33,598 bases of DNA from a candidate division WOR-3 bacterium (GCA_039802265.1 JBDRWI010000021.1:1-33598), one strand, 5' to 3'. Positions 630-29,732 are shown, counted from the stretch's first letter. The notes: generated from the letters alone by a model not told the origin. Program-made: numbers and translations.

Positions 630-1050
630 GATTCAGTGTGTCCGTTTTGGCAGAACGCTTTTAATCGGTGAATTCTCGGCCGGGTCTTTTACGATTAAAT
701 TTAAAAAAATGTTCCGCGGCGAATCTCATTCAGACCATCCAGTTTAAATTTCTCTTTGGAGGATTGATACTCAATGTAATCGACATTTTGTCGTTGGAGT
801 ATTCAAGGTGTTTAAATTCCTCATTTATCCCATCATGGATTCTGTTGTTTTTTTAAAGTAGCACCGCTTGCGGCGCGGAAAAGTCTTCGGATTTAAAATA
901 ATTTTCAACATAGATCGAAGTCTGCCACTTGATTTTACGACAAAATCTTGATGGTAGGGATAAAACGGATGATGCGCTTATATGTGTACCTGAGGATTAC
1001 TTCTTCTTTGATGAAATTTATGTGTTTTCACGGAAAAAAATGTAATATTA

Positions 1051-1087
1051 CCCCAACCTTTTTCCTCTCCCATCAAAGGGGGAGGGA
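1051..1087. repeat. Partial copy of the G/C-tract hairpin motif (CCCCAACCTTTTTCCTCTCCCATCAAAGGGGGAGGG)
   Basis: Aligns with 17726-17765 of the right repeat copy. Lies just upstream of the SPFH promoter. Confidence 0.6.
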
Positions 1088-1110
1088 AAAGTGTATTCAC
1101 CACATCATAG

Positions 1111-7990: not shown

Positions 7991-8036
7991 TAAACCAGAC
8001 TACCCTTTTTTTGTCTAAAGTTTAAAAGGAGAAGTG

Positions 8037-8369
8037 ATGGCAAAATTCTGGAAAGATTTTTCCAAATGGCTGGAAGATGCATCAAGGGTTCTGAGTAAAG
8101 AGGCCGGTGACCTGACGCTGAAGGGAAAGTTGAAACTGGAGGTCTTTGAGTTGAAAAGGCGATTGCAAGAACAGTACAAAGAACTCGGTGTAGCAGTTTA
8201 CGAGCAGATCTCAAAGAAGTCTGGTTCAGTTGTAGTAACTCCTTCAATAAAAGGCATTTTGTCAAAGATCAAAAGAATCCAGAAAGAAATAAAAGAAAAG
8301 GAGAAATATTATAAAAAGATAGGGGAAGATAGCTGCAAAAAGACTTATGGTAACGCGAAAAAGGAATAA
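8037..8369 (+). CDS. Hypothetical coiled-coil protein (about 110 aa)
   Basis: ORF with AAAGGAG RBS; no family motif. Its last 30 nt lie inside the left inverted-repeat copy. Confidence 0.45.
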   Translation: MAKFWKDFSKWLEDASRVLSKEAGDLTLKGKLKLEVFELKRRLQEQYKELGVAVYEQISKKSGSVVVTPSIKGILSKIKRIQKEIKEKEKYYKKIGEDSCKKTYGNAKKE

Positions 8370-8567
8370 AAATGGTGATTAGAAAAAGGGCTGTAAGATT
8401 GATTGGTGATTCAAAAAATGCAGATGCATCATTTATGGTGCTTAAAATATCGTAAGTTTTACCTCCTTCTTGATGGGGGAGGATAAAGGTGGGGGTGAAA
8501 GATAAAATACCCCCTCACCCTTGCCCTCTCCCACAGGGGGAGAGGGATTTGATATATCCGAGGAGGT
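8340..8567. repeat. Left copy of a 230-bp inverted repeat with three GC hairpins (8462-8482, 8488-8519, 8524-8546), ending in GAGGAGG 5 nt before hsp20 ATG
   Basis: Manual alignment with the reverse complement of 17652-17890 gives about 5 substitutions and 2 indels. Contains a 27-codon ORF (8372-8455) with its own AAGGA RBS. Confidence 0.9.
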
Positions 8568-8571
8568 TGAT

Positions 8572-9021
8572 ATGGCAGATAAACAATTAAAGCGATGGGA
8601 CCCGTTCAGGGAATTGATCTCCCTGAGGGATGATATGGACCGTTTGTTCAGTTCGTTTTTTGGAAGACCATCGGTTGAAGAGATGGAAGGGGTCTGGGCG
8701 CCGGTGATTGACCTTGAAGAGGATAATGAGAACTTTCTGGTTAAGGCAGAACTGCCTGGATTGAAGAAAGAGGATATAAAGATTTCGGTACGGGGTAACC
8801 TACTCACACTGACCGGTGAGCGAAAACAGGAGACAGAGACGAAGAATAAGACCTATCACCGGGTAGAGAGGTTTTATGGAAAGTTTTCAAGGACGATTAC
8901 CCTGCCCAGTGAAGTGGATGCGGATAAAGTGAAGGCGAGTTATAAGGATGGTCTGCTTACCATCACCCTGCCCAAACCCGAGACAATGAAGCCCAAGGAG
9001 ATTGAGATTGAGGTGAAGTAA
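8572..9021 (+). CDS. hspA: Small heat-shock protein, Hsp20/alpha-crystallin family
   Basis: Alpha-crystallin-domain pattern (FLVKAELPGLKKEDIKISV...LTITLPK). The true ATG is at 8572; the ORF-track extension from 8521 is repeat sequence. Confidence 0.85.
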   Translation: MADKQLKRWDPFRELISLRDDMDRLFSSFFGRPSVEEMEGVWAPVIDLEEDNENFLVKAELPGLKKEDIKISVRGNLLTLTGERKQETETKNKTYHRVERFYGKFSRTITLPSEVDADKVKASYKDGLLTITLPKPETMKPKEIEIEVK

Positions 9022-9030
9022 TAAAAGAAA

Positions 9031-9082
9031 CAGGAGTGGCCGGGGAACATTTAAATTGCTCCGCTACTCCTGTTTCTTAATA
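9031..9082 (+). terminator. Long stem-loop (12-bp perfect stem AGAAACAGGAGT/ACTCCTGTTTCT, 28-nt loop) between hsp20 and htrA
   Basis: Inverted repeat read directly. The 3' flank is A-rich rather than U-rich, so function as an intrinsic terminator is uncertain. Confidence 0.35.
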
Positions 9083-9096
9083 AAAAAGGAGTTTTT

Positions 9097-10590
9097 ATGG
9101 AAGGAAAGATTTCTTTTAAAGCGGCCGGGATAATCGCCGGAGCGGCGGCGGTGTTTGCCTTTCTCTTTGGTTTGATTATCAGTACCGGTATACCAGGGCT
9201 TGCAAATCGCACTGAGGCAAGTCCTGAAAAAGCTGTTCAGGTACCTCTGGTAAATGAGGAAGGGGAGAGCCCCTTTACAAAGGTGGCTGAGACTGTTTCA
9301 CCCGCAGTGGTGAATATTTCTGCCGAGCGCAAGGTCAAGACCAACATTCCAAATCTTGAATGGGAATTTCGCGGACCTCTGGAAGAATTCTTCAGGGATT
9401 TCTTCAGAAACTTTCCGAGATACGAGGGTAAATCACAGACCCTGGGCTCGGGTTTTATTATTTCAGAGGATGGCTATGTGGTAACGAACCATCATGTAAT
9501 CAAGGATGCCTCGGAGATTATAATAAAGATGACCGATAAGAGGGAGTATAAGGGCGATAAGGTTAAGGTCATCGGTTCTGATCAGCGCACCGATGTGGCA
9601 CTGCTGAAGATTGAAACCGATGAGAAGTTACCGTATTTGAAATTTGGTGATTCAGACAAGATTAAGGTTGGGGATTGGGTTATTGCAGTTGGTAATCCGT
9701 TCAATCTTGAAGGGACGGTTACGGTTGGAGTGATTTCGGCAAAGGGAAGGAGCAATATTCCACTTGCCGAGGGTCCGGACTTTCAGAGTTTTCTTCAGAC
9801 CGACGCAGCCATAAATCCAGGTAATTCCGGGGGACCACTTTTAAATATTCACGGTGAAGTCATCGGCATAAATACGGCAATCACCTCTACTACCGGTGGT
9901 AATATCGGGATTGGATTTGCAATCCCCATAAATCTTGCACGGACAATAATTGATGAGCTGAGGACAAAAGGTAAGGTTACCAGGGGCTACTTGGGTGTCT
10001 ATTTAGGCGAGGTTGATGAAGATATTAAAGAGGCGCTGGGCCTTTCCAGTACCGAAGGTGTTCTGATAAATGAGGTTGTTCCCAATTCACCGGCCGAAAG
10101 GGCGGGCTTAAAGGACCGGGATGTAATAATTGAGTTTGATGGCAAGAAGGTGACGGATGTCCAGTCATTCCGGATTATGGTTGCCTCAACTCCTGTGGGT
10201 AAAGAGGTGAAATTGAAGATTATCCGTGATGGCAAAAAAATAGAGAAGAGTGTCAGGATCGGTGAGATGCCTGAAGAGAAGGTTGCAGTGAAGGAAGAGC
10301 GAGGGCTGGAAAAGGAACTTGGGTTGACGGTCGTTGAGCTTGACAATCCCCGTGCCCGTAATTATAATCTGAATGTGAAAGAGGGTGTTTTGGTTATTGA
10401 TGTGAAAGATGATTCACCCGCCGGAGATGCCGGGATTGAGCCCGGAGATGTGATTGTTGAGATTGGGAATGATAAGATAAAGAATCTTGCCGATTATCGG
10501 CAGGCAGTGGCAAGATTAAAGAAGGGTAAGCCGGTTATCTTTCAGATTCAAAGAGGAGAAAGAAAACGCTATGTGGCAGTGACACCTTAA
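9097..10590 (+). CDS. htrA: HtrA/DegP-family periplasmic serine protease with two PDZ domains
   Basis: N-terminal TM/signal, catalytic-triad context (TNHHV...DVALLK...GNSGGPLLN) and two PDZ-like segments. RBS AAGGAG. Confidence 0.9.
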   Translation: MEGKISFKAAGIIAGAAAVFAFLFGLIISTGIPGLANRTEASPEKAVQVPLVNEEGESPFTKVAETVSPAVVNISAERKVKTNIPNLEWEFRGPLEEFFRDFFRNFPRYEGKSQTLGSGFIISEDGYVVTNHHVIKDASEIIIKMTDKREYKGDKVKVIGSDQRTDVALLKIETDEKLPYLKFGDSDKIKVGDWVIAVGNPFNLEGTVTVGVISAKGRSNIPLAEGPDFQSFLQTDAAINPGNSGGPLLNIHGEVIGINTAITSTTGGNIGIGFAIPINLARTIIDELRTKGKVTRGYLGVYLGEVDEDIKEALGLSSTEGVLINEVVPNSPAERAGLKDRDVIIEFDGKKVTDVQSFRIMVASTPVGKEVKLKIIRDGKKIEKSVRIGEMPEEKVAVKEERGLEKELGLTVVELDNPRARNYNLNVKEGVLVIDVKDDSPAGDAGIEPGDVIVEIGNDKIKNLADYRQAVARLKKGKPVIFQIQRGERKRYVAVTP

Positions 10591-10593
10591 AAT

Positions 10594-11448
10594 ATGATTA
10601 GACCGGTTAGTGAGCGGGGATTAAGGCAATATTTTGAAGAGGTCGGTAAATATCCACTACTTGATAAAGAAGAGGAAAGTAGATTAGCAAAAAGGTTCAG
10701 AGAAAAAAAAGACCAGGAGGCAAAAGAGAAGTTAATACTCTCAAATCTAAGAATCGTTATCTCTATCTGTTCAAAATTTCATAACTGTGGTTTGAGTATG
10801 TCTGAGCTCATAAATGCGGGTAATCGTGGCCTCTTACGGGCGGTTGAGAAATATGATGAGAGAAAGGGCTATCGATTCTGCACCTATTCAGTCTGGTGGA
10901 TAAAAAGGGCAATTTATGAGGCAATAAATGCCGAATTTGGAGTCATCAAAAAGAGTAGATTAGCCCGAAGAATTCAGATGTTTATTGGCAAATTTGTGCA
11001 GAATAAGGGTCGGGAACCCACCCTCCAGGAAATAGCCGAGGGGTTGAAAGTTGATACAATGCATGTCAATCGAGCACTTGCAGAGTTGATTCCATTAATT
11101 TCCCTTGATTCAGCATTTGAACAGGAAGATGCTGATACACCGTTTATTGAAAAACTACGCCTTGATGAATCAAGTTCAAAATTTTTCGGGCTGGAATCCT
11201 TTATTGCCCCAGCACCCGAGGAAGTATTTGAAAAGAAACTGGAAAAGGAAAGCCTGAATGAGGCAATAGGAACACTTCAACCCCGTGAACAGGAGATTAT
11301 AAAACGGAGTTTTGGGCTTGATGACTACGACTGCCAGAGTCTTGAGGAAATCAGCCGGATAATGAATATCACCAGAGAACGGGTGCGGCAGATAAGGGAT
11401 AATGCCCTGAAGAAGTTGAAAATGTATCTGCGGATGAAGCGGCGTTAA
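10594..11448 (+). CDS. RNA polymerase sigma factor, sigma-70 family (alternative sigma, group 2/3 size)
   Basis: Region 2 (GLLRAVEKYDERKGYRFCTYSVWWIKRAI) and region 4.2 HTH (LEEISRIMNITRERVRQIRDNALKKL). No RpoH box. Confidence 0.8.
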   Translation: MIRPVSERGLRQYFEEVGKYPLLDKEEESRLAKRFREKKDQEAKEKLILSNLRIVISICSKFHNCGLSMSELINAGNRGLLRAVEKYDERKGYRFCTYSVWWIKRAIYEAINAEFGVIKKSRLARRIQMFIGKFVQNKGREPTLQEIAEGLKVDTMHVNRALAELIPLISLDSAFEQEDADTPFIEKLRLDESSSKFFGLESFIAPAPEEVFEKKLEKESLNEAIGTLQPREQEIIKRSFGLDDYDCQSLEEISRIMNITRERVRQIRDNALKKLKMYLRMKRR

Positions 11449-11554
11449 TTTGTTGTATTGTTATAAATCCGCAGTATGAAATTCTAAAGAATTATATACC
11501 CAACTCTGTCTACCGGCAGACCAAACTCGGTTGTCATACCCTAAGGATTTAACT

Positions 11555-11569
11555 GAACCCTGATTAAAT
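11555..11569. terminator. Short palindrome CCTGAT-TAA-ATCAGG between the convergent sigma-factor and hslV genes
   Basis: Perfect 6-bp inverted repeat with a 3-nt loop; a weak candidate bidirectional terminator. Confidence 0.25.
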
Positions 11570-11592
11570 CAGGAGAAGGCAAATTATCTTCT

Positions 11593-12117
11593 TTATAACT
11601 CCTCAATGGATATCTCGGTATTCGTATAAATACATATCCCCGCGGCAATTCTTATTGACTCTTCAACAATCTCCCGTGCTGAAAGATTGGAATACTTAAT
11701 CAATGCCCGGCAGGCAGCAAGGGCATAGGGCGAGCCTGAGCCAATAGCGACAATTCCATCATCGGGTTCAACTATGTCACCGGCACCGGAAACCACATAG
11801 GCATGTTCTTTATCAAGGATTGCCAGAAATGCCTCCAGGCGTCTTAGAATTTTGTCCTGACGCCAGTCCTTGGCCAGTTCAACTACACTGCGGGGAAGAT
11901 TGCCCCGGAACTCTTCCAATTTTGCCTCAAATCGCTCAAAGAGGGTCAGCGCATCAGCCGTGGCACCGGCAAATCCAACGAGGATTTTATCGTTATACAT
12001 CTTTCTAATCTTTTTGGCATGGTGCTTCATCACGGTTTCCCCGGTGGTTACCTGCCCGTCACAACCAATTGCCACCTGTCCTTTGAATCTTACACCAATA
12101 ATTGTTGTTCCGTGCAT
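11593..12117 (-). CDS. hslV: ATP-dependent protease subunit HslV (ClpQ)
   Basis: Collinear match along the whole length to HslV: TTIIGV N-terminal Thr, [38 protein letters not shown]. Confidence 0.9.
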
Positions 12118-12124
12118 AATTTAA

Positions 12125-12152
12125 ATTATATCCACCAAAATAGCGATGTCAA
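12125..12152 (-). promoter_or_regulatory. Consensus sigma-70 promoter for hslV (TTGACA, 16-bp spacer, TATAAT), with the -10 only 7 nt from the ATG: predicted leaderless mRNA
   Basis: Minus-strand reading TTGACATCGCTATTTTGGTGGATATAATTTAAATTATG. No SD is possible in the 7-nt gap. Confidence 0.5.
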
Positions 12153-12180
12153 CAAAGGATAATTCTGTATCCCAAAGCCA

Positions 12181-13596
12181 TTAAATTTTTATGACCTTTT
12201 TTATCTGGAGTATTTCGCCCCGCGATTCTAATTGAATAATATATATCCCATTGGGCACTCTTTTCTGAGCATTGTCCAGACCAGACCAGATGATTTTGTT
12301 TTTCGGTTGCATCGGTAGCGCATTCCATTGTCTGACCAACCTGCCAGTTACATCATAGATTTTCAGACTGATAGACGATGTTTGCCAATTACGGGTAGAA
12401 AGTTTTGTATCTTCTATCCCATAGGTAATACTTAATTCGGTAGTAAACGGATCTGGATTGATTTGAAACATTATCCGGGGTAAGTAATGGCGTGCCTCTT
12501 CCATTCTACCGAAATTCATATAACTCCCATAAATATCCCAGTCGCCATTTCGGTCGGTTTGCCACAACACCCACAGGCAAAACTCACTCTGGGTCACGAC
12601 CGGTAGAATATCCCGGGCATAGTGTGTATCAACATATATTGATTCCCATCCGGGTGAATCAAAAAATGTGTAGATATCCTCATTACCATTCCGAATCGAA
12701 CTGTAGGCCGATACAAGAGGCATCCAGCGGGTTACGGCTATGAAATAAAATGGGCAGGGTGTAGTATCGACTACATTGTTGAAGGTAACACGAAAGGCAT
12801 TGTTCAGTGAATCATAACCAGTCCGATAGATTTCCCAGTTTCCATCCCGATTGGATTCCCAGAAAACCCATACCCCGTAAGTATAAGAGAAGAAACTATA
12901 GACAGCAATCTCTGGATTCAGATCATCGGCGGGGTCGGATGTTATCCGCTGAGCAGTTTGCCATGAACCTCCAATGTATTCATTGTAGTAGACATCTCCA
13001 TTTTTCTCCCAGACGACAAAGGGGTGTGCGTAACGCAAATTTATCCTGGGATTGAGGTTATCATAGAATGAGTCAAGGGTCACTGACATAGGAGCTGACC
13101 AGGTTGTGCCATCATAGTAAGAAGCAAGGATATTTACTGCTTCCGCCATTGGTCCACACTCCCAGACAACCCAGACTGTATCATTAGTAACGCATATTGA
13201 TGGAGATTTATCATCAAATTGGGAATTGGTTAGCTGATAGGGGGACTGCCAGTGGTTTGTGGTATCCCCCTTTGCCACAAAGATATTCCAGTTTCCCGCA
13301 CTATTATTCTGCCAGACACACCAGAAACAATTTCTTGAATAATCATAGGCAACACTCGGATTAATGTCTGAAACAGTATTGTTTGTTATTCTAATTGTGT
13401 CACTCCAGAATTCGCCATAATTGAAGCGAGAAAATATCTCCCAGTTATTGTTAATGTAAGACTGCCATACCAGACAGGCATAGGGTACCTGGAGGCGGCA
13501 GATTTGAGGATTCCTGTCATCAATCCCAACGATTCCTAAATTAATGGGTGTGGACCAGAATTGCAAGGGAAGTATTAATAAAAAATAGGAAGCCAT
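12181..13596 (-). CDS. Secreted Trp-rich beta-propeller repeat protein with T9SS C-terminal sorting domain
   Basis: Signal peptide; repeats of about 45 aa ending in W.VWE/W.SP; C-terminal 80 aa end ...KIYDVTGRLV...GIYIIQLES...KVIKI, typical of a Por/T9SS CTD. Start moved to ATG 13596 (RBS AAGGAGG). Confidence 0.7.
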   Translation of the reverse strand: MASYFLLILPLQFWSTPINLGIVGIDDRNPQICRLQVPYACLVWQSYINNNWEIFSRFNYGEFWSDTIRITNNTVSDINPSVAYDYSRNCFWCVWQNNSAGNWNIFVAKGDTTNHWQSPYQLTNSQFDDKSPSICVTNDTVWVVWECGPMAEAVNILASYYDGTTWSAPMSVTLDSFYDNLNPRINLRYAHPFVVWEKNGDVYYNEYIGGSWQTAQRITSDPADDLNPEIAVYSFFSYTYGVWVFWESNRDGNWEIYRTGYDSLNNAFRVTFNNVVDTTPCPFYFIAVTRWMPLVSAYSSIRNGNEDIYTFFDSPGWESIYVDTHYARDILPVVTQSEFCLWVLWQTDRNGDWDIYGSYMNFGRMEEARHYLPRIMFQINPDPFTTELSITYGIEDTKLSTRNWQTSSISLKIYDVTGRLVRQWNALPMQPKNKIIWSGLDNAQKRVPNGIYIIQLESRGEILQIKKVIKI

Positions 13597-13618
13597 CGAG
13601 GTCCTCCTTTCCAAAAAT

Positions 13619-13646
13619 ATTATACCCCATTTTATCAATTCGTCAA
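13619..13646 (-). promoter_or_regulatory. Consensus sigma-70 promoter (TTGACG, 16-bp spacer, TATAAT) for the T9SS beta-propeller gene
   Basis: Minus-strand CTTGACGAATTGATAAAATGGGGTATAAT, followed by an AAGGAGG RBS. Confidence 0.5.
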
Positions 13647-13676
13647 GGTTGGCAATTCACTTAAAAAGAGGATATC

Positions 13677-13697
13677 ATGCCCCGAAATTAAGGGCAT
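13677..13697 (-). terminator. Hairpin ATGCCC-N9-GGGCAT followed on the minus strand by a T-rich tract, downstream of thyX
   Basis: Inverted repeat read directly. Minus-strand 3' flank is GATATCCTCTTTTT. Confidence 0.35.
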
Positions 13698-13743
13698 TTT
13701 ACCTTTACATTAACAGCGGGGAAATGTAAAATTTAGTATTATA

Positions 13744-15261
13744 TTATCCTGGTGGCGGAACCGCAGTTACCTTTGGATATTTGCCATAGATTTTGTAATA
13801 AACTTCTGGATAATCTGATTTACTACACAGTAGCCGGCTGGTAACAGGAAGGATCCTTTTTGCCAGTTTTGACATCTTATGCACCGTATCTCTGATATCC
13901 CACTGTGCCGTTGGGTCTTCGCGCAGCCTTGAGATGTGGTATAACTCACGCAGATTTAAACTCATCAAGACCCTTTTACGATGGCTATTGGTAAGGATGT
14001 AGGAGCCAACACCCGGGTATTTTTTTTCTATTTTATTGTAAAGGGAATTCGTTCTTTCAACAATCTCCATAAAATTTTTTTCTTCACCAATTTCTTTGAT
14101 TGATTCCGGTATGGTATTTCCCAGCTGGGGGTTATATTCCTGGGCGATGATTGTGGCAATGCGGTGCCTCTTCAACTGGCCAAAAGCGGCAGCTGAGACA
14201 GTAAGGGAATAGGTGAGATTGGTAAATTCAAATTCCCTCAGGACTGTATCATAAAGTTCAAGATAATGGCAGGCTTTTTTGAACAATTCCAATTTCTGTT
14301 TCTCATTCATTTTTTTGATGATACTCTGACAGCGCTGGTAATCAATATTTTTGATTTTAAACAAGATTGCCGCAAGGACCTTATCATCACCATCCGATGT
14401 ATAGTCAACAAGACTCACGCCTTCATCAGATAAAACATCACTCCTGCATTTGATCTTTAGTGTGTCTTGATTCTTTCTTGAGAATGCACCATTTATATAT
14501 TCCCGGAGCATGGGATATGTCAGACGGTCATAGTCATTCGCCTTAAAGAATAAGAGTAGTGAGGGGGCAATCCGTCGGGTGGTGTGGAATAGTTTTTCAC
14601 CGAGTTGGTTTATCTCTTTTAGTTGATGGCTGGCGAATCGCCGAAGCATCAATTCCAGATTTCGGGCGTTGATTGTTGCACCGAGCTGGGTTTTTGTTGC
14701 CAGGGGCAGGATATAGCGGGCATCCTCCTTTGCGAGATTTTCCAGCTGGCGTTTGCCCTTTGGTTCGTTTATTAAGTCTGGAAATTTTTTTTGATTCAGG
14801 GATATCAACTTATCTAACAGGTTCAAATAAAAACTTTGTTGAAGTTTAATTAAATTCAAATATTGACCTAAAAGCGAAGGATTTTTCAATTCCTCAGGTA
14901 TAAAAACGCCCCCCTTGAAGGTGACATAGCGCTGTGATTTCTCGGTATAGGAACAGAGCCGATGCCCTTCCAGTTCTTCAACTGCCCGCCGGGAGATGCC
15001 GATGATATCAAAATTGAAGACCGCATGCTCGGCGATTGAGTGGTGGCTCATCTCAAAGATAATCCTTCGATTTGATTTACGGGCATTTTCCACCTCGGTT
15101 CTTGCCTCTCTTCTCAGTTCAATTACTGAATTGGGGCTGCGACTTATCCGGGCATACGCTGCAGAGATTGTTTCAGGGGTGAGCGGTATTCCATTATGTT
15201 CCTTATTCAGTTCTTTGAGTATTTCTGTATCAACATTATAGCCAGCAAGAAAAACCTTCAT
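13744..15261 (-). CDS. thyX: Flavin-dependent thymidylate synthase ThyX-like, tandem (duplicated) Thy1 domains, 505 aa
   Basis: First half has HHSIAEHAVFNF and ...GHRLCSYTEKSQRY (ThyX motif, first R replaced by G). Second half has LKRHRIATIIAQEY (intact RHR, degenerate SxRY). Confidence 0.7.
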   Translation of the reverse strand: MKVFLAGYNVDTEILKELNKEHNGIPLTPETISAAYARISRSPNSVIELRREARTEVENARKSNRRIIFEMSHHSIAEHAVFNFDIIGISRRAVEELEGHRLCSYTEKSQRYVTFKGGVFIPEELKNPSLLGQYLNLIKLQQSFYLNLLDKLISLNQKKFPDLINEPKGKRQLENLAKEDARYILPLATKTQLGATINARNLELMLRRFASHQLKEINQLGEKLFHTTRRIAPSLLLFFKANDYDRLTYPMLREYINGAFSRKNQDTLKIKCRSDVLSDEGVSLVDYTSDGDDKVLAAILFKIKNIDYQRCQSIIKKMNEKQKLELFKKACHYLELYDTVLREFEFTNLTYSLTVSAAAFGQLKRHRIATIIAQEYNPQLGNTIPESIKEIGEEKNFMEIVERTNSLYNKIEKKYPGVGSYILTNSHRKRVLMSLNLRELYHISRLREDPTAQWDIRDTVHKMSKLAKRILPVTSRLLCSKSDYPEVYYKIYGKYPKVTAVPPPG

Positions 15262-15262
15262 A

Positions 15263-16351
15263 TTAAGGGTTATTTTTCAATTTTGTGAAACGTTTTTTAA
15301 TATCCATTGCCAGAAACTTTAAAGATGAATACATGTCAAGGGCACAGTCCCGATAAAAGGCGAGGTCCCTTCCCACTGGGTCCGGGACTTCATTGTATTT
15401 TGTGCGCCGCTTGTATTCCTTCAATAAGAATGTCTTGGCAACCGAATCGGCCGAGATTTCCAGCACCGTCTCATAATGGCGATACTCCATCACCAGTATC
15501 AGGTCAGCCCAATCAATAAGTTCTTTATTGATGGGTCGGGAGCGGTGGTTATCAATGGACCCGCCAAATTCCTTTACCACAATCCGGGCATTGGGGGAGG
15601 CAGGAAGTCCATCAATTGCGGCTGTTCCAGCGGTCTGGACATCCAGATAGTCTTCTGGAACCATCGTCTTTATTATGCCCATTGCCATGGGACTGCGACA
15701 GGTATTACCGGTGCATACAAAAAGGAGGTTAAATTTTAATGAATCGCCAATTATTATTCTTCTTCCATAGACCTTTTCGATTTCCAAAATAGGCACCCTG
15801 CCCTTGCGCAAAATTGTTGGTGGGGTTGTGGTGAGGTCAAGGATGGTTGATGGTGCTCCTTTGAGGATACCACCGTCAATTATCAGTTTAATTTCCTTAA
15901 AATTATCAGCGATCTCCTGTGGTGTTGTAAAAGGAGGCTGTGCCGAAAGATTTGCACTGGTAACAATAAGGGGATTGTCATAGCAATTCAATAACTTTAT
16001 GATAAAATGGACATCCGGAATTCTTATTCCAATTTTCTTTTCCGCTGCGTCAATGGGGGCAGCTGGATTTCTTTTTAAGATAAAAGTAATTGGACCGGGC
16101 AGAAAATAGTCGATGAGCTTCCGTTTAGTAATAATTGCATAATCGGGGATATTCTTTTTTGATATAAAAAAGGTGTATGGTTTATTATCTCTCTTTTTTA
16201 ATGAATTCAGTCTTTCTTTTGCACTAACGTAGGTCGCATCTACGGCAAGGCCATAGACGGTATCGGTGGGCAGGGCAATAATCGCTCCCTTTTTCAAGGC
16301 GTCAACTATCCTTCCGTAGAATTCTTCCGAATCGTCAATCTTTATTATCAT
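15263..16351 (-). CDS. tsaC: Fusion protein: Sua5/YrdC-type threonylcarbamoyl-AMP synthase (TsaC) N-terminal domain and low-molecular-weight protein-tyrosine/arginine phosphatase C-terminal domain
   Basis: N-terminal ...ALPTDTVYGLAVDA (YrdC/Sua5 motif). C-terminal half has LLFVCTGNTCRSPMA (LMW-PTP CX5R P-loop) and a later DP motif. Confidence 0.75.
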   Translation of the reverse strand: MIIKIDDSEEFYGRIVDALKKGAIIALPTDTVYGLAVDATYVSAKERLNSLKKRDNKPYTFFISKKNIPDYAIITKRKLIDYFLPGPITFILKRNPAAPIDAAEKKIGIRIPDVHFIIKLLNCYDNPLIVTSANLSAQPPFTTPQEIADNFKEIKLIIDGGILKGAPSTILDLTTTPPTILRKGRVPILEIEKVYGRRIIIGDSLKFNLLFVCTGNTCRSPMAMGIIKTMVPEDYLDVQTAGTAAIDGLPASPNARIVVKEFGGSIDNHRSRPINKELIDWADLILVMEYRHYETVLEISADSVAKTFLLKEYKRRTKYNEVPDPVGRDLAFYRDCALDMYSSLKFLAMDIKKRFTKLKNNP

Positions 16352-16354
16352 CTT

Positions 16355-17644
16355 TTATCTTATCTTCCTCTTTCTCTTCATTTTCTTCATTCCAGAACTG
16401 CCGATATCCTTGCGGTAATACATTCCCGGAAAGTGAATCTTTTTAATTTCCTCATAGACTTTCTGTTTGGCGATCTTCAGATTGTCCGCTGCGTAGACGA
16501 CATTAAGTACCCTGCCGCCGGCGGTGATGAGTTTAGAATCGTCCAGTTTTGTTCCGGCGTGGAATAGAAGTGTTTGCGAATCAAGCGGTTCTTTTATCTG
16601 GATTTCTTCTCCAACTTTGTAGTCAAAAGGATAACCAGCCGAGGCAAGGACAACACAGATTGACCATAAATTCTTTATTTTAACCTGGAGTTCTTGAACT
16701 TGATTTTCAATTACGGCAAGGAAGATGTCAATTATGTCGTTCTCAATTATGGGCATCATTGCCTGGGTCTCAGGGTCCCCGAAACGGCAGTTGAACTCCA
16801 ATACCTTCGGTCCGGATGGAGTAAGAATAAGTCCGGCATATAAGATTCCTTTATAGACAATACCACAATCATGGAGGGTAAGGATGGTTGGCTGAATTAT
16901 TACCTGCTGGATAATACTGGTGATCCGCCGATTTGTGGGATATGGGGAATAGGCACCCATCCCACCGGTATTTGGTCCCCGATTGCGGTCGTAGAGTTTC
17001 TTATGATCCTGGGCAGATGGCAAATAGGCGATCTTCAAACCATCGGTAAGGGCAAAGACCGAACATTCCTGACCGCTCAAGAACTCTTCAACAACGATCT
17101 TTTTCCCTGCCTCACCCAGTTTGTGCTGAACGAATATCTCGTCAATAACCTTTTCGTATTCATTCTTGTTGTTCACAATGAAGGTTCCCTTGCCGCCGGC
17201 AAGTCCGGCTGCCTTTACCACAACAGGAAATTCATTTATCGACTTGGGGTATTTTAATGCCTGTGCCGCGCTGTCGTAGATCTGAAATTTAGGGGAGGGA
17301 ATGCCATACTGGTGCATAAATTCCCGGGCAAAGGATTTATCTGCCTCAATCCGGCTGGCATTCTTTGTTGGTCCGAAAATTTTTAGTCCTCTTTTGTTGA
17401 ATTCATCAACAATTCCCAGGGCAAGGGGTAATTCCGGTCCCACCACAGTCAGGTCAATGTGATTCTGCTGGGCAAATTGGGCGAGCCCGGTGATATCAGT
17501 GGGTAAGATGTTAACACAGGTGGCAAGTTTGGCAATGCCCGGATTGCCGGGCGCCGCATAAATCTTCTTCACCTTCCTTGATTTGTGAATCTTCCAAACG
17601 AGGGCATGTTCCCGTCCGCCACTGCCAATGACCAGAATATTCAT
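16355..17644 (-). CDS. purD: Phosphoribosylamine-glycine ligase
   Basis: MNILVIGSGGREHALVWK N-terminus and ATP-grasp core. The ORF-track start at 17698 is repeat read-through; the true ATG at 17644 is preceded by GAGGAGG. Confidence 0.9.
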   Translation of the reverse strand: MNILVIGSGGREHALVWKIHKSRKVKKIYAAPGNPGIAKLATCVNILPTDITGLAQFAQQNHIDLTVVGPELPLALGIVDEFNKRGLKIFGPTKNASRIEADKSFAREFMHQYGIPSPKFQIYDSAAQALKYPKSINEFPVVVKAAGLAGGKGTFIVNNKNEYEKVIDEIFVQHKLGEAGKKIVVEEFLSGQECSVFALTDGLKIAYLPSAQDHKKLYDRNRGPNTGGMGAYSPYPTNRRITSIIQQVIIQPTILTLHDCGIVYKGILYAGLILTPSGPKVLEFNCRFGDPETQAMMPIIENDIIDIFLAVIENQVQELQVKIKNLWSICVVLASAGYPFDYKVGEEIQIKEPLDSQTLLFHAGTKLDDSKLITAGGRVLNVVYAADNLKIAKQKVYEEIKKIHFPGMYYRKDIGSSGMKKMKRKRKIR

Positions 17645-17651
17645 TTTAGAT

Positions 17652-17890
17652 ACCTCCTCGGATATATCAAATCCCTCTCTCCCTGTGGGAGAGGGCAAGG
17701 GTGAGGGGGTATTTTATCTTTCACCCCCACCTTTATCCTCCCCCATCAAGGGGGAGGATAAAACTTACGAAATTTAATAATATTTTAAGCACCGTAAATG
17801 GTGCATCTGCATTTTTTGAATCACCAATCAATCTTACAGCCCTTTTTCTAATCACCATTTTTATTCCTTTTTCGCGTTACCATAAGTCTT
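17652..17890. repeat. Right copy (inverted) of the 230-bp repeat; contains a perfect CCTCCCCC-ATCAA-GGGGGAGG hairpin
   Basis: Reverse complement aligns with 8340-8567 at about 97% identity, with a 10-bp insertion. Ends in the GAGGAGG used as purD's SD on the minus strand. Confidence 0.9.
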
Positions 17891-17923: not shown

Positions 17924-18685
17924 TCAAAAACTTTTTTTTAAATTTGACGAATGTCCAAAATTATTTCGCACATTTTTCATAATCGTTTTGAAGACATCAG
18001 GTGACTGTTCAATAACACTACCCAGGACAATGAAATCGGCTCCCGCGTCAAGGATTCGCTGGGCATCAACCGGGGTCTTGATTCCGCCCCCAACGATTAG
18101 CGGGATAGATATGTTCTTCTTGACTGCCTTGACAATCTCTACCGGAACCGGCATCTTTGCACCACTCCCAGCCTCCAGATAGATAAACTTCATTCCAAAA
18201 TATTCCCCAGCCAGGGCATGAGCAATCACAATTTCAGGCTTTGAACGAGGTATGGGTCGGGTGTTTGAGATGTATTCGGCTGAGGTAAAACTTCCTGATT
18301 CAATAAGGATATAACCAACAGGAATTACCTCAATATTGTATGACTTTATTAAAAATACTGCCTTAACCTGTTCACCAATCAGAAATTCGGGATTTCGACC
18401 GCTGATCAGCGATAAAAAGAATATGGCATGGGCAGATGGGGAGACCTGATGCGCACCGCCCGGAAAGATAATTATTGGTACGTTGGCTTTTTTCTTTACA
18501 GTGGCAACGAATCTGTCAAAATTGGGGGAGATCAGGAGGGAAGAACCGATTAAGATTGCCTTAACACCTTCTTTGCTCGCCAATCGGGCAAGGCTACCGG
18601 CAGCTTTTATTGACATCCGGTCCGGGTCAAAGAGGGCAAAGACCCCGGGTTTTGACCGCTTCAGTCTTTCGTAGATTGCTGGCAT
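17924..18685 (-). CDS. pcrB: PcrB/GGGP-synthase family prenyl-glycerol-phosphate synthase (TIM barrel)
   Basis: Conserved collinear blocks: ALFDPD, ILIGSSL, YLEAGSGA, PLIVGGGIKTPVDAQRILDAGADFIVLGS. Confidence 0.75.
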   Translation of the reverse strand: MPAIYERLKRSKPGVFALFDPDRMSIKAAGSLARLASKEGVKAILIGSSLLISPNFDRFVATVKKKANVPIIIFPGGAHQVSPSAHAIFFLSLISGRNPEFLIGEQVKAVFLIKSYNIEVIPVGYILIESGSFTSAEYISNTRPIPRSKPEIVIAHALAGEYFGMKFIYLEAGSGAKMPVPVEIVKAVKKNISIPLIVGGGIKTPVDAQRILDAGADFIVLGSVIEQSPDVFKTIMKNVRNNFGHSSNLKKSF

Positions 18686-18691
18686 TTCTAA

Positions 18692-18720
18692 ATTATAATC
18701 ACTTTTCGGATAAAAATCAA
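18692..18720 (-). promoter_or_regulatory. Sigma-70 promoter for pcrB (TTGATT, 17-bp spacer, TATAAT) with only 6 nt to the ATG: predicted leaderless mRNA
   Basis: Minus-strand TTGATTTTTATCCGAAAAGTGATTATAATTTAGAAATG. Confidence 0.45.
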
Positions 18721-29527: not shown

Positions 29528-29732
29528 TTTTCCTCCTCAATCATTGAGGAACTATTATATAAATTATAACCCCGATGTCAATATCACTAAGACCTGGTTA
29601 CTACTCACTTTTTTCTGCCATTTGATAGGAGTTTTGATTCTACCGGATTAAGGTGGGGGTGGAAAATCAACAATCCTTTCAAATATTGCCAACTTAGGTT
29701 TCAAAAAGTAGGGAGGGTCAATAGAGGGAATA

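Follow-up and report, generated by a model that had tools for sequence, protein, structure and literature searches.

Do two near-identical inverted repeats on either side of a block of genes mark off a cassette, and what do they do to the genes that they precede? This question is raised by a stretch of 33,598 nucleotides from a candidate division WOR-3 bacterium (GCA_039802265.1 JBDRWI010000021.1:1-33598, here called the window), in which two copies of a repeat of about 230 bp flank a 9.3 kb block, one copy directly before hsp20 and the other directly before purD. It is highly probable, in our view, that the repeat is a dispersed element of the BoxC type, present in at least three copies, which was recently inserted at the edges of Shine-Dalgarno (SD) sequences and is most likely selfish or neutral DNA. 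The 9.3 kb block itself is ordinary, and the inverted pair marks no cassette.

The left copy occupies 8340-8567 on the plus strand (228 nt), between a small upstream open reading frame (ORF) and hsp20, and the right copy 17652-17890 on the minus strand (239 nt, with 10 extra bp), between a PcrB-family gene and purD; both sites are empty in relatives. A repeat search of the window recovers the pair as two sets of inverted, collinear arms of 111 nt, 8340-8450 with 17780-17890 at 98% identity and 8457-8567 with 17652-17762 at 95%, the two sets being parted by the 10-bp indel. In the alignments, the left copy and the reverse complement of the right copy differ by 5 substitutions and by two indels, of 10 bp and 1 bp, just as an earlier, sequence-only reading of the window had reported. 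An inverted identity of about 230 bp cannot be due to chance. That reading had left room for a repeat collapsed in the metagenome assembly; this explanation, like that of a false duplication in the contig, is now effectively refuted. Short-read contigs do break within the repeat, and such assemblies can also switch path there, but the two copies differ in sequence, and an independent assembly, GCA_965649065.1 (locus L003), holds both of them, 100% identical and in the same arrangement. In GCA_039802345.1 (L001), a contig of 9343 bp is exactly the block between the repeats, with both its ends inside them, and a break inside a real repeat is the usual behaviour of short-read assemblers. These two assemblies exclude an assembly collapse, and both junctions also keep the gene neighbourhoods seen in relatives without the element. 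Exact-protein look-ups found the repeat in four other assemblies from the same or a very close population. The evidence supports a duplicated element of the mobile type, and not an assembly artefact.

The pair in the window is not the whole family, contrary to the picture of two copies bracketing a block. A third and more diverged copy is located between an MFS transporter gene and a gene for a 914-aa protein of the type IX secretion system (T9SS) in L040 (GCA_965649065.1). In L025, which was reached through a 41-aa ORF called inside the right copy, PcrB and the repeat are followed by the 914-aa T9SS-tail protein instead of purD, and the same junction was observed in a second metagenome-assembled genome (MAG), L043; further loci were reached by looking up the 914-aa protein. 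In L005, a further outer flank of 25 nt, 'X', is joined to the repeat and then to purD, and this flank could not be placed in any fetched locus. There are also Logan contigs that start inside the repeat. Every copy has the same first base, AAGACTTA..., and extends to ...TATATCCGAGGAGGT, and the contexts so far comprise at least three inner and four outer ones. The repeat is a dispersed, non-coding unit of 228-239 bp in one WOR-3 lineage, with at least three and probably at least four copies. Since hsp20 and purD point towards each other the arms are inverted, and this orientation reflects only the convergence of the two genes. The third-copy locus L040 also encodes a tyrosine recombinase of 300 aa (1598-2500; Phage_integrase, XerC/D size), about 5.5 kb upstream of the copy; it is probably a housekeeping enzyme, and a link to the repeat is not established.

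The sites could also be observed without the element. At hsp20 the site is empty in the closest relative (L035, 84% identity; AAAGGAGGTTAATATG) and in a more distant species (L036-L039, 68%; AAAGGAGGTTGATATG), where the stop of the upstream ORF (...AAA GGA GGT TAA/TGA) lies 1 nt before the ATG of hsp20. The window reads TGCAAA, then the element, then (A)GGAGGTTGATATG. The element entered between the Lys codon and the GGA GGT TGA of the upstream ORF, so that the old last codons, the stop and the SD remain on its 3' side and the ORF has received 9-10 new codons and a new stop from it. This ORF (8034-8369, plus strand; annotated from 8037, 110 aa) is conserved, and its homologues end in ...YKKIG-x-K-G-G. 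In the window, the element-encoded codons at 8340-8369 replace the ancestral ...K-G-G with a C-terminal KTYGNAKKE, which is absent from all 12 non-identical homologues aligned (P0002-P0019, with P0001 being the window's own protein). The element-free junction in the relatives, together with the novel C-terminus, means that the left copy is also an insertion. The sequence-only reading had correctly seen that the left copy holds the last codons of the ORF and that the outer end of the right copy is intergenic, but the left copy is not the ancestral one, as had been concluded from this asymmetry.

The purD site is empty as well, with PcrB ending 11 nt (L048) or 43 nt (L049) before purD. The adjacency of PcrB and purD is therefore ancestral, and the block in the window is in its ancestral orientation. 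At the gene of the 914-aa protein, the empty site (L045) reads TTGACA-17-TATAAT-agtcaa-GAGGAGGTTTTATG and the filled one TTGATT-16-TAAAAT-aaaga, the element and GAGGAGGTTATATG, which places the gene's own promoter just outside the element. The comparisons show that the insertions are recent and that the element went into short leaders or tight junctions within operons. No terminal inverted repeats join the ends of the 230-bp unit, and no target-site duplication was found, since filled and empty sites leave at most 1 nt (A) of ambiguity.

The insertions have an exact position relative to the ribosome-binding sites. Both copies in the window share the 3' end GATATATCCGAGGAGGT, and the start codons follow at the distances that had been noted before, the ATG of hsp20 (8572) 5 nt after GAGGAGG (8560-8566) and the ATG of purD (17644, minus strand) 8 nt after GAGGAGG (17653-17659, minus strand), the latter SD lying at the inner edge of the right copy. 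The identity between the copies extends through GAGGAGGT, that is, through the SD of both genes, and to this extent the earlier proposal that the repeat supplies them is supported. The proposal is largely wrong, however, as GGAGGTTGATATG before hsp20 and GAGGAGGTT before the 914-aa gene were there before the element: relatives without it have GGAGGTT at the same position before both genes. Since these relatives have the SD in place, the repeat did not create the ribosome-binding sites at these two of the three loci. At hsp20, the sequence GAGGAGGTTGAT (8560-8571, plus strand) contains both the SD and the relic GGA GGT TGA, the last codons and stop of the ancestral ORF. It is preceded by the last element-specific bases, the tail ATTTGATATATCC (8547-8559, plus strand), and the junction falls within or just 5' of AGGAGGT. 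The AGGAGG seen today may belong to the native DNA, or it may come from the element and have been joined to the native DNA by a microhomology of 6-7 nt.

At each of the three sites the element lies directly against the 5' edge of (G)AGGAGGT. In the 33.6 kb window the motif AGGAGG is found just 19 times, both strands counted, and is intergenic in only six cases, two of these being the junctions and one lying inside the left copy. It is very unlikely that random insertion would produce this exact adjacency three times, and the element would either target the SD or join through AGGAGG microhomology. A tail of 25 nt, GAGGGATTTGATATATCCGAGGAGG, with a related C/G-tract hairpin 5' of it, was also found in two other metagenomic organisms, where it stands 5-6 nt ahead of unrelated genes, namely a 102-aa ORF after glnA (L052) and a TspO gene (L053). 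The search pattern included the SD and does not discriminate between an element that carries an SD and one that targets it. When the 18-nt tail without the SD was used, there were 11 matches in viral contigs, none with an upstream hairpin, and these were taken as chance or coding. It is conceivable, although we hold the idea only tentatively and consider it unlikely, that the WOR-3 unit, and perhaps a wider family with the hairpin and tail of L052 and L053, homes to the SD as a non-autonomous element and integrates at or through AGGAGG.

The unit has two halves of different character. The AT-rich 5' half, about 110 nt (8340-8449 in the left copy, plus strand), is found in this lineage only, with no match in other phyla and no promoter consensus, and a 24-nt pattern taken from it gave 0 matches in the JGI metagenome contigs. 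It contains a short ORF of 27 aa in the left copy (8372-8455, plus strand), 41 aa in the right (17733-17858, minus strand) and, read by eye, about 23 aa in the third copy; with indels shortening each copy differently, it is probably not coding. The 3' half is a palindromic pair of intrastrand-triplex motifs of the BoxC/PIT/triplex-motif class. The pair is an inverted tandem and intergenic, yet in the left copy the end of an ORF lies within the 5' half.

Motif A reads CCTCCTTC-ttgat-GGGGGAGG-ataaa-GGTGGGGG in the left copy (8462-8495, plus strand) and CCTCCCCC-ttgat-GGGGGAGG-ataaa-GGTGGGGG in the right copy (17724-17757, minus strand), which gives CCTCC(C/T)(C/T)C-ttgat-GGGGGAGG-ataaa-GGTGGGGG on the gene strand across the copies. 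In its third strand the purine strand is mirrored (G.G and T.A triads), and the motif forms the core that is shared with other phyla. Motif B of the left copy (8512-8546, minus strand) is an exact match to the published TMECO/BoxC consensus from E. coli, CCCTCNCCC N3-6 GGGNGAGGG N3 GGGNGAGGG, with 0 matches expected in shuffles, and on this strand, opposite to that of the gene, it reads CCCTCTCCC-cctgt-GGGAGAGGG-caa-GGGTGAGGG. The third copy matches too, and the right copy (17673-17707, plus strand) has one mismatch, an A in place of a G within the hairpin. The third, G/T strand of both motifs is a mirror image of the purine strand, and every position gives an allowed triad (G.G-C, A.A-T, T.A-T). 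The middle 'hairpin', GGTGGGGGT and ACCCCCTCACC, is imperfectly complementary because the third strands mirror the purine strands. As RNA, the two copies are predicted to fold at -76 and -81 kcal/mol, with z-scores of -4.1 and -4.5. Rfam gave only a tRNA at gathering thresholds over the whole window, and only spurious miRNA and snoRNA matches at E up to 10 in 8250-8650. A consensus promoter scan found no sigma-70-like site in the element in the direction of the genes; one match, at 17670-17643, overlaps the start codon of purD and cannot serve that gene.

The closest relatives of the repeat are the BoxC/PIT motifs (TMECO consensus, Holder et al. 2015), which are highly conserved and widespread and have no associated transposase (PMC4666352, which also cites earlier work on the class by Bachellier and by Hoyne/Maher). 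TMECO is reported from 262 genomes of proteobacteria, and cyanobacteria have other G/C-rich motifs; the triplexes form in vitro and were not detected in vivo in E. coli, and the analysis found no mobility signature around the motifs, while their loci are more rearranged between E. coli strains (PMC4666352). The left copy in WOR-3 has the exact consensus, with a C-strand, loop, purine strand, loop and mirror G/T third strand, and the motifs form a palindromic pair as in the mrcB-hrpB spacer of E. coli K-12. Like BoxC, they are intergenic, conserved across distant taxa, without a transposase and tied to rearrangement at the strain level. Motif B also has a counterpart on a Klebsiella plasmid, with 90% identity over 42 nt. 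The BLAST searches of phages and plasmids returned only short matches, to the triplex-motif part. What differs is the host, a motif A variant with 8-nt stems and the composition CCTCCCCC/GGGGGAGG/GGTGGGGG, and the longer unit of 230 bp with sharp ends and an AT-rich 5' half in which the motifs sit. Furthermore, insertion is precise at ribosome-binding sites in WOR-3, whereas the motifs of E. coli have no orientation or gene association.

Other repeat classes share parts of this picture. REP2 of Neisseria likewise lacks terminal inverted repeats; it carries a promoter, a ribosome-binding site and a start codon and marks co-regulated genes (PMC3184786). This class of 120-150 bp also has internal stem-loops and a ribosome-binding site at the 3' end directly before ORFs, and looks like a copied 5' untranslated region. 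In the WOR-3 unit, by contrast, no promoter was found, the binding sites were already in place, the known copies number only 3-4, and the sequence has no similarity to that of REP2. [quoted passage not shown] They can leave an operon functional after insertion (Chunjie), add residues to host proteins (RPE) and promote rearrangement (PMC10969869). The repeat resembles them in being short, non-coding and multi-copy with empty orthologous sites, but lacks terminal inverted repeats and a target-site duplication. The REP/BIME/REPIN sequences are likewise GC-rich extragenic palindromes, often in inverted pairs and between co-transcribed genes, but no REP-type sequence or RAYT transposase was found in the DNA examined, and the WOR-3 unit is far longer and apparently of low copy number. 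We conclude that the WOR-3 unit is a lineage-specific variant of the BoxC/PIT/triplex-motif class, with MITE-like behaviour and REP2-like placement.

The core of motif A is not restricted to WOR-3. A degenerate 23-nt pattern derived from it gave 18 matching stretches among the species-representative genomes and 9 among the viral contigs. The genomes belong to Atribacterota, several MAGs of the Deltaproteobacteria type, Omnitrophota, Actinomycetota and Peribacteria, all of them phyla other than WOR-3. The homology covers 45-65 nt at 84-100% identity, and a 45-nt variant of the core occurs in at least six other bacterial lineages as well as in viral contigs. In the deltaproteobacterial MAGs (L007, L009, L010, L014, L018, L020, L023, L011) the core lies inside a TA-flanked unit of about 165 nt with terminal inverted repeats, TTACTCCGGCAA.../...TTGCCGGAGTAA, which occurs in at least eight copies in one MAG, many at contig ends. 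By this structure it is a genuine MITE carrying triplex motifs; the 9-bp direct repeats of Chunjie (PMC10969869) are at odds with its TA flanks. In three Atribacterota MAGs (L006, L008, L013) and a viral contig (L031) the third strand, AAGGTGGGGGTGA, stands 4-6 nt before a start codon, where it presumably serves as the ribosome-binding site. The Atribacterota ORF that follows has an N-terminus, MEKLWGGRF, that looks ArgH-like, although the family is not confirmed.

It was also possible to observe related motifs outside the repeat. A solitary unit of the triplex-motif type lies at 1050-1088 (minus strand) of the window, upstream of a Band 7/SPFH gene and outside any 230-bp copy, and reads CCCTCCCCC-tttgat-GGGAGAGG-aaaaa-GGTTGGGG. 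An isolated 23-nt fragment of the cross-phylum core, GGATTAAGGTGGGGGTGGAAAAT, without a hairpin, is found at 29645-29681 (plus strand), about 50 nt upstream of an MFS transporter gene. The element-free relative L037 (9150-9225; also L036, L038 and L039) has a triplex-type unit of its own, CCCCCTCAC-...-CCCTCTCCCC-loop-GGGGAGAGG-ataa-GGGTGAGGGG, in a spacer of about 500 nt between hsp20 and htrA, and the presence of such a unit in an element-free relative means that triplex motifs are common in the intergenic DNA of WOR-3. An intergenic region of WOR-3 (L045, 2320-2560) has repeats of another short palindromic motif (cattgcgagc...gaagcaatc), and a similar sequence adjoins the triplex core, just upstream, in contigs of Atribacterota and Actinomycetota (L013, L021).

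The copies of the repeat seem to exchange sequence, which bears on the possibility that they form an invertible segment. In the table of single-nucleotide differences, L025 and L043 combine PcrB-type 5' markers with the markers next to the 914-aa gene (one C fewer, and G), the switch point differing between the two, while L005 has purD-type 3' markers together with T/T 5' markers and flank X. Only 9-45 nt separate the PcrB-type from the 914-type markers in L025, and so molecules with this mix probably exist and copies exchange sequence between strains. The mix in L025 and L043 can be either gene conversion or a true rearrangement between PcrB and the 914-aa gene, as MAGs from short reads fit both. 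That the inverted copies flip the 9.3 kb block, and thereby swap the upstream context of the hsp20 and purD operons, is in line with these mixed markers and with the alternative junctions of other copy pairs (PcrB-repeat-914aa in two MAGs and X-repeat-purD). The inverted homology of 228-239 bp at 95-98% would be enough for RecA-dependent inversion, and triplex-motif loci are prone to rearrangement in E. coli (PMC4666352). The alternative junctions come, however, from short-read MAGs, where they could be gene conversion or graph mis-joins, and no recombinase is present in or next to the block. No contig has the junctions expected of an inverted block, ORF111-repeat-purD or PcrB-repeat-hsp20; the two assemblies that span it both keep the ancestral neighbours, ORF with hsp20 and PcrB with purD, and the other contigs are compatible with this. 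The inversion that the sequence-only reading had allowed for is therefore very improbable.

A regulatory role has more in its favour but is still quite unlikely. The repeat could have been co-opted as a shared module of promoter, leader and ribosome-binding site for hsp20, purD and the T9SS gene, much as REP2, a repeat without terminal inverted repeats that has both a promoter and a ribosome-binding site, sets a precedent for in Neisseria (PMC3184786). It lies directly 5' of three gene starts in the same orientation, its RNA fold is stable, and the tail with the SD recurs before genes in other organisms. A promoter in the element had also been presumed from the sequence, but none of the sigma-70 type was found in the direction of the genes in a lineage that uses clear TTGACA/TATAAT promoters, and the 914-aa gene has its own promoter outside the element. 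The ribosome-binding sites predate the element, the three genes are functionally unrelated, the predicted folds have no sequestration of the SD common to the copies, and there is no Rfam match. Members of the class in E. coli were without promoter or terminator activity in an earlier PIT study (summarised in PMC4666352). An RNA thermometer or stress leader that arose at hsp20 and was later copied elsewhere is hardly credible. The position upstream of hsp20 would suit it, and pairing of its C-rich CCUCC tracts with the GGAGG of the SD would be possible in principle, but the minimum-energy folds pair these tracts with the G tracts of the element itself. Moreover, the repeat is absent before hsp20 in all relatives examined, is found before purD and the T9SS gene as well, and gives no Rfam match.

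Our explanation is instead that of a dispersed BoxC-type repeat inserted at SD edges. The element would be co-transcribed in the mRNAs of its hosts, between cistrons at hsp20 and purD and as a leader of about 230 nt at the 914-aa gene, where it sits between the gene's own -10 box and the SD. Once transcribed, it would fold into very stable stem-loops, and with the SD and start codon left intact the downstream genes would still be translated. At hsp20 the insertion would break the former translational coupling with the upstream ORF, besides changing the C-terminus of that ORF. The element itself is most likely DNA of a selfish or neutral kind, with 230 bp of homology that would let copies recombine. 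Several points weigh against this explanation. Transcription across the element, like any influence on expression, is deduced from the DNA, and the lack of promoter and terminator activity in E. coli may not transfer to WOR-3. The copy count comes from draft assemblies of the lineage, so that three is a lower bound, and no transposase or other mobilising enzyme was identified in the DNA examined. Three sites are a small sample, and the adjacency to the SD could owe something to selection, in a compact genome, against insertions that disrupt genes; the tails in L052 and L053 would fit an element that carries an SD as well as one that targets it.

The genes in the block are those listed in the sequence-only reading. 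By Pfam they are HSP20 (hsp20, 8572-9021, plus strand, the first gene 3' of the left copy), an HtrA-type protease, a sigma-70 family protein, an HslV-type proteasome subunit, a T9SS cargo protein, ThyX, Sua5/TsaC fused to a low-molecular-weight phosphatase, and PurD (purD, 16355-17644, minus strand, the first gene 3' of the right copy). As had also been stated, there is no recombinase: the Pfam scan, which covered the nine genes of the block and the two ORFs on the upstream side of the left copy, found none, and in the precomputed Pfam hits the outer side of the right copy has only PcrB (17924-18685, minus strand), the ancestral upstream neighbour of purD. ThyX (13744-15261, minus strand) is of double length, 505 aa with two Thy1 stretches, and the fusion of Sua5/TsaC to a low-molecular-weight phosphotyrosine phosphatase domain lies at 15263-16351 (minus strand); both are conserved in relatives. 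A perfect promoter, TTGACA-16-TATAAT (12125-12152, minus strand), ends 7 nt before the ATG of hslV, a TATAAT is found 6-7 nt before the ATG of PcrB (about 18686-18710, minus strand), and another precedes the ORF at 294. Promoters this close to the starts of hslV and PcrB, together with the last TATAAT, suggest that leaderless mRNAs are common in this WOR-3 genome. In the relatives L036 and L037 (5764-7224) a reverse transcriptase of 486 aa (RVT_1), absent from the window, lies just upstream of a nadD-like gene; a group II intron origin for it is only a guess.

The means of spread and the function of the BoxC/PIT/triplex motifs are enigmatic, in spite of their striking conservation and wide distribution. 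The WOR-3 lineage offers clean before-and-after sites at three loci, with exact boundaries and always at the 5' edge of the ribosome-binding site. The insertions have split one translationally coupled pair and rewritten one C-terminus, which gives a handle on how such a repeat moves and what it does to operons. What is of interest here is the precise and repeated insertion at ribosome-binding sites and the near-identical core in other phyla, and not the 9.3 kb block; for genome scanning the lesson is that the inverted pair seen here defines no cassette. If the element does home to the SD, it would always land between the upstream part of a transcript and an intact ribosome-binding site, and repeats of the triplex/BoxC type could then spread inside operons without killing genes. 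This would be the first defined insertion rule for an enigmatic class of cross-phylum repeats.

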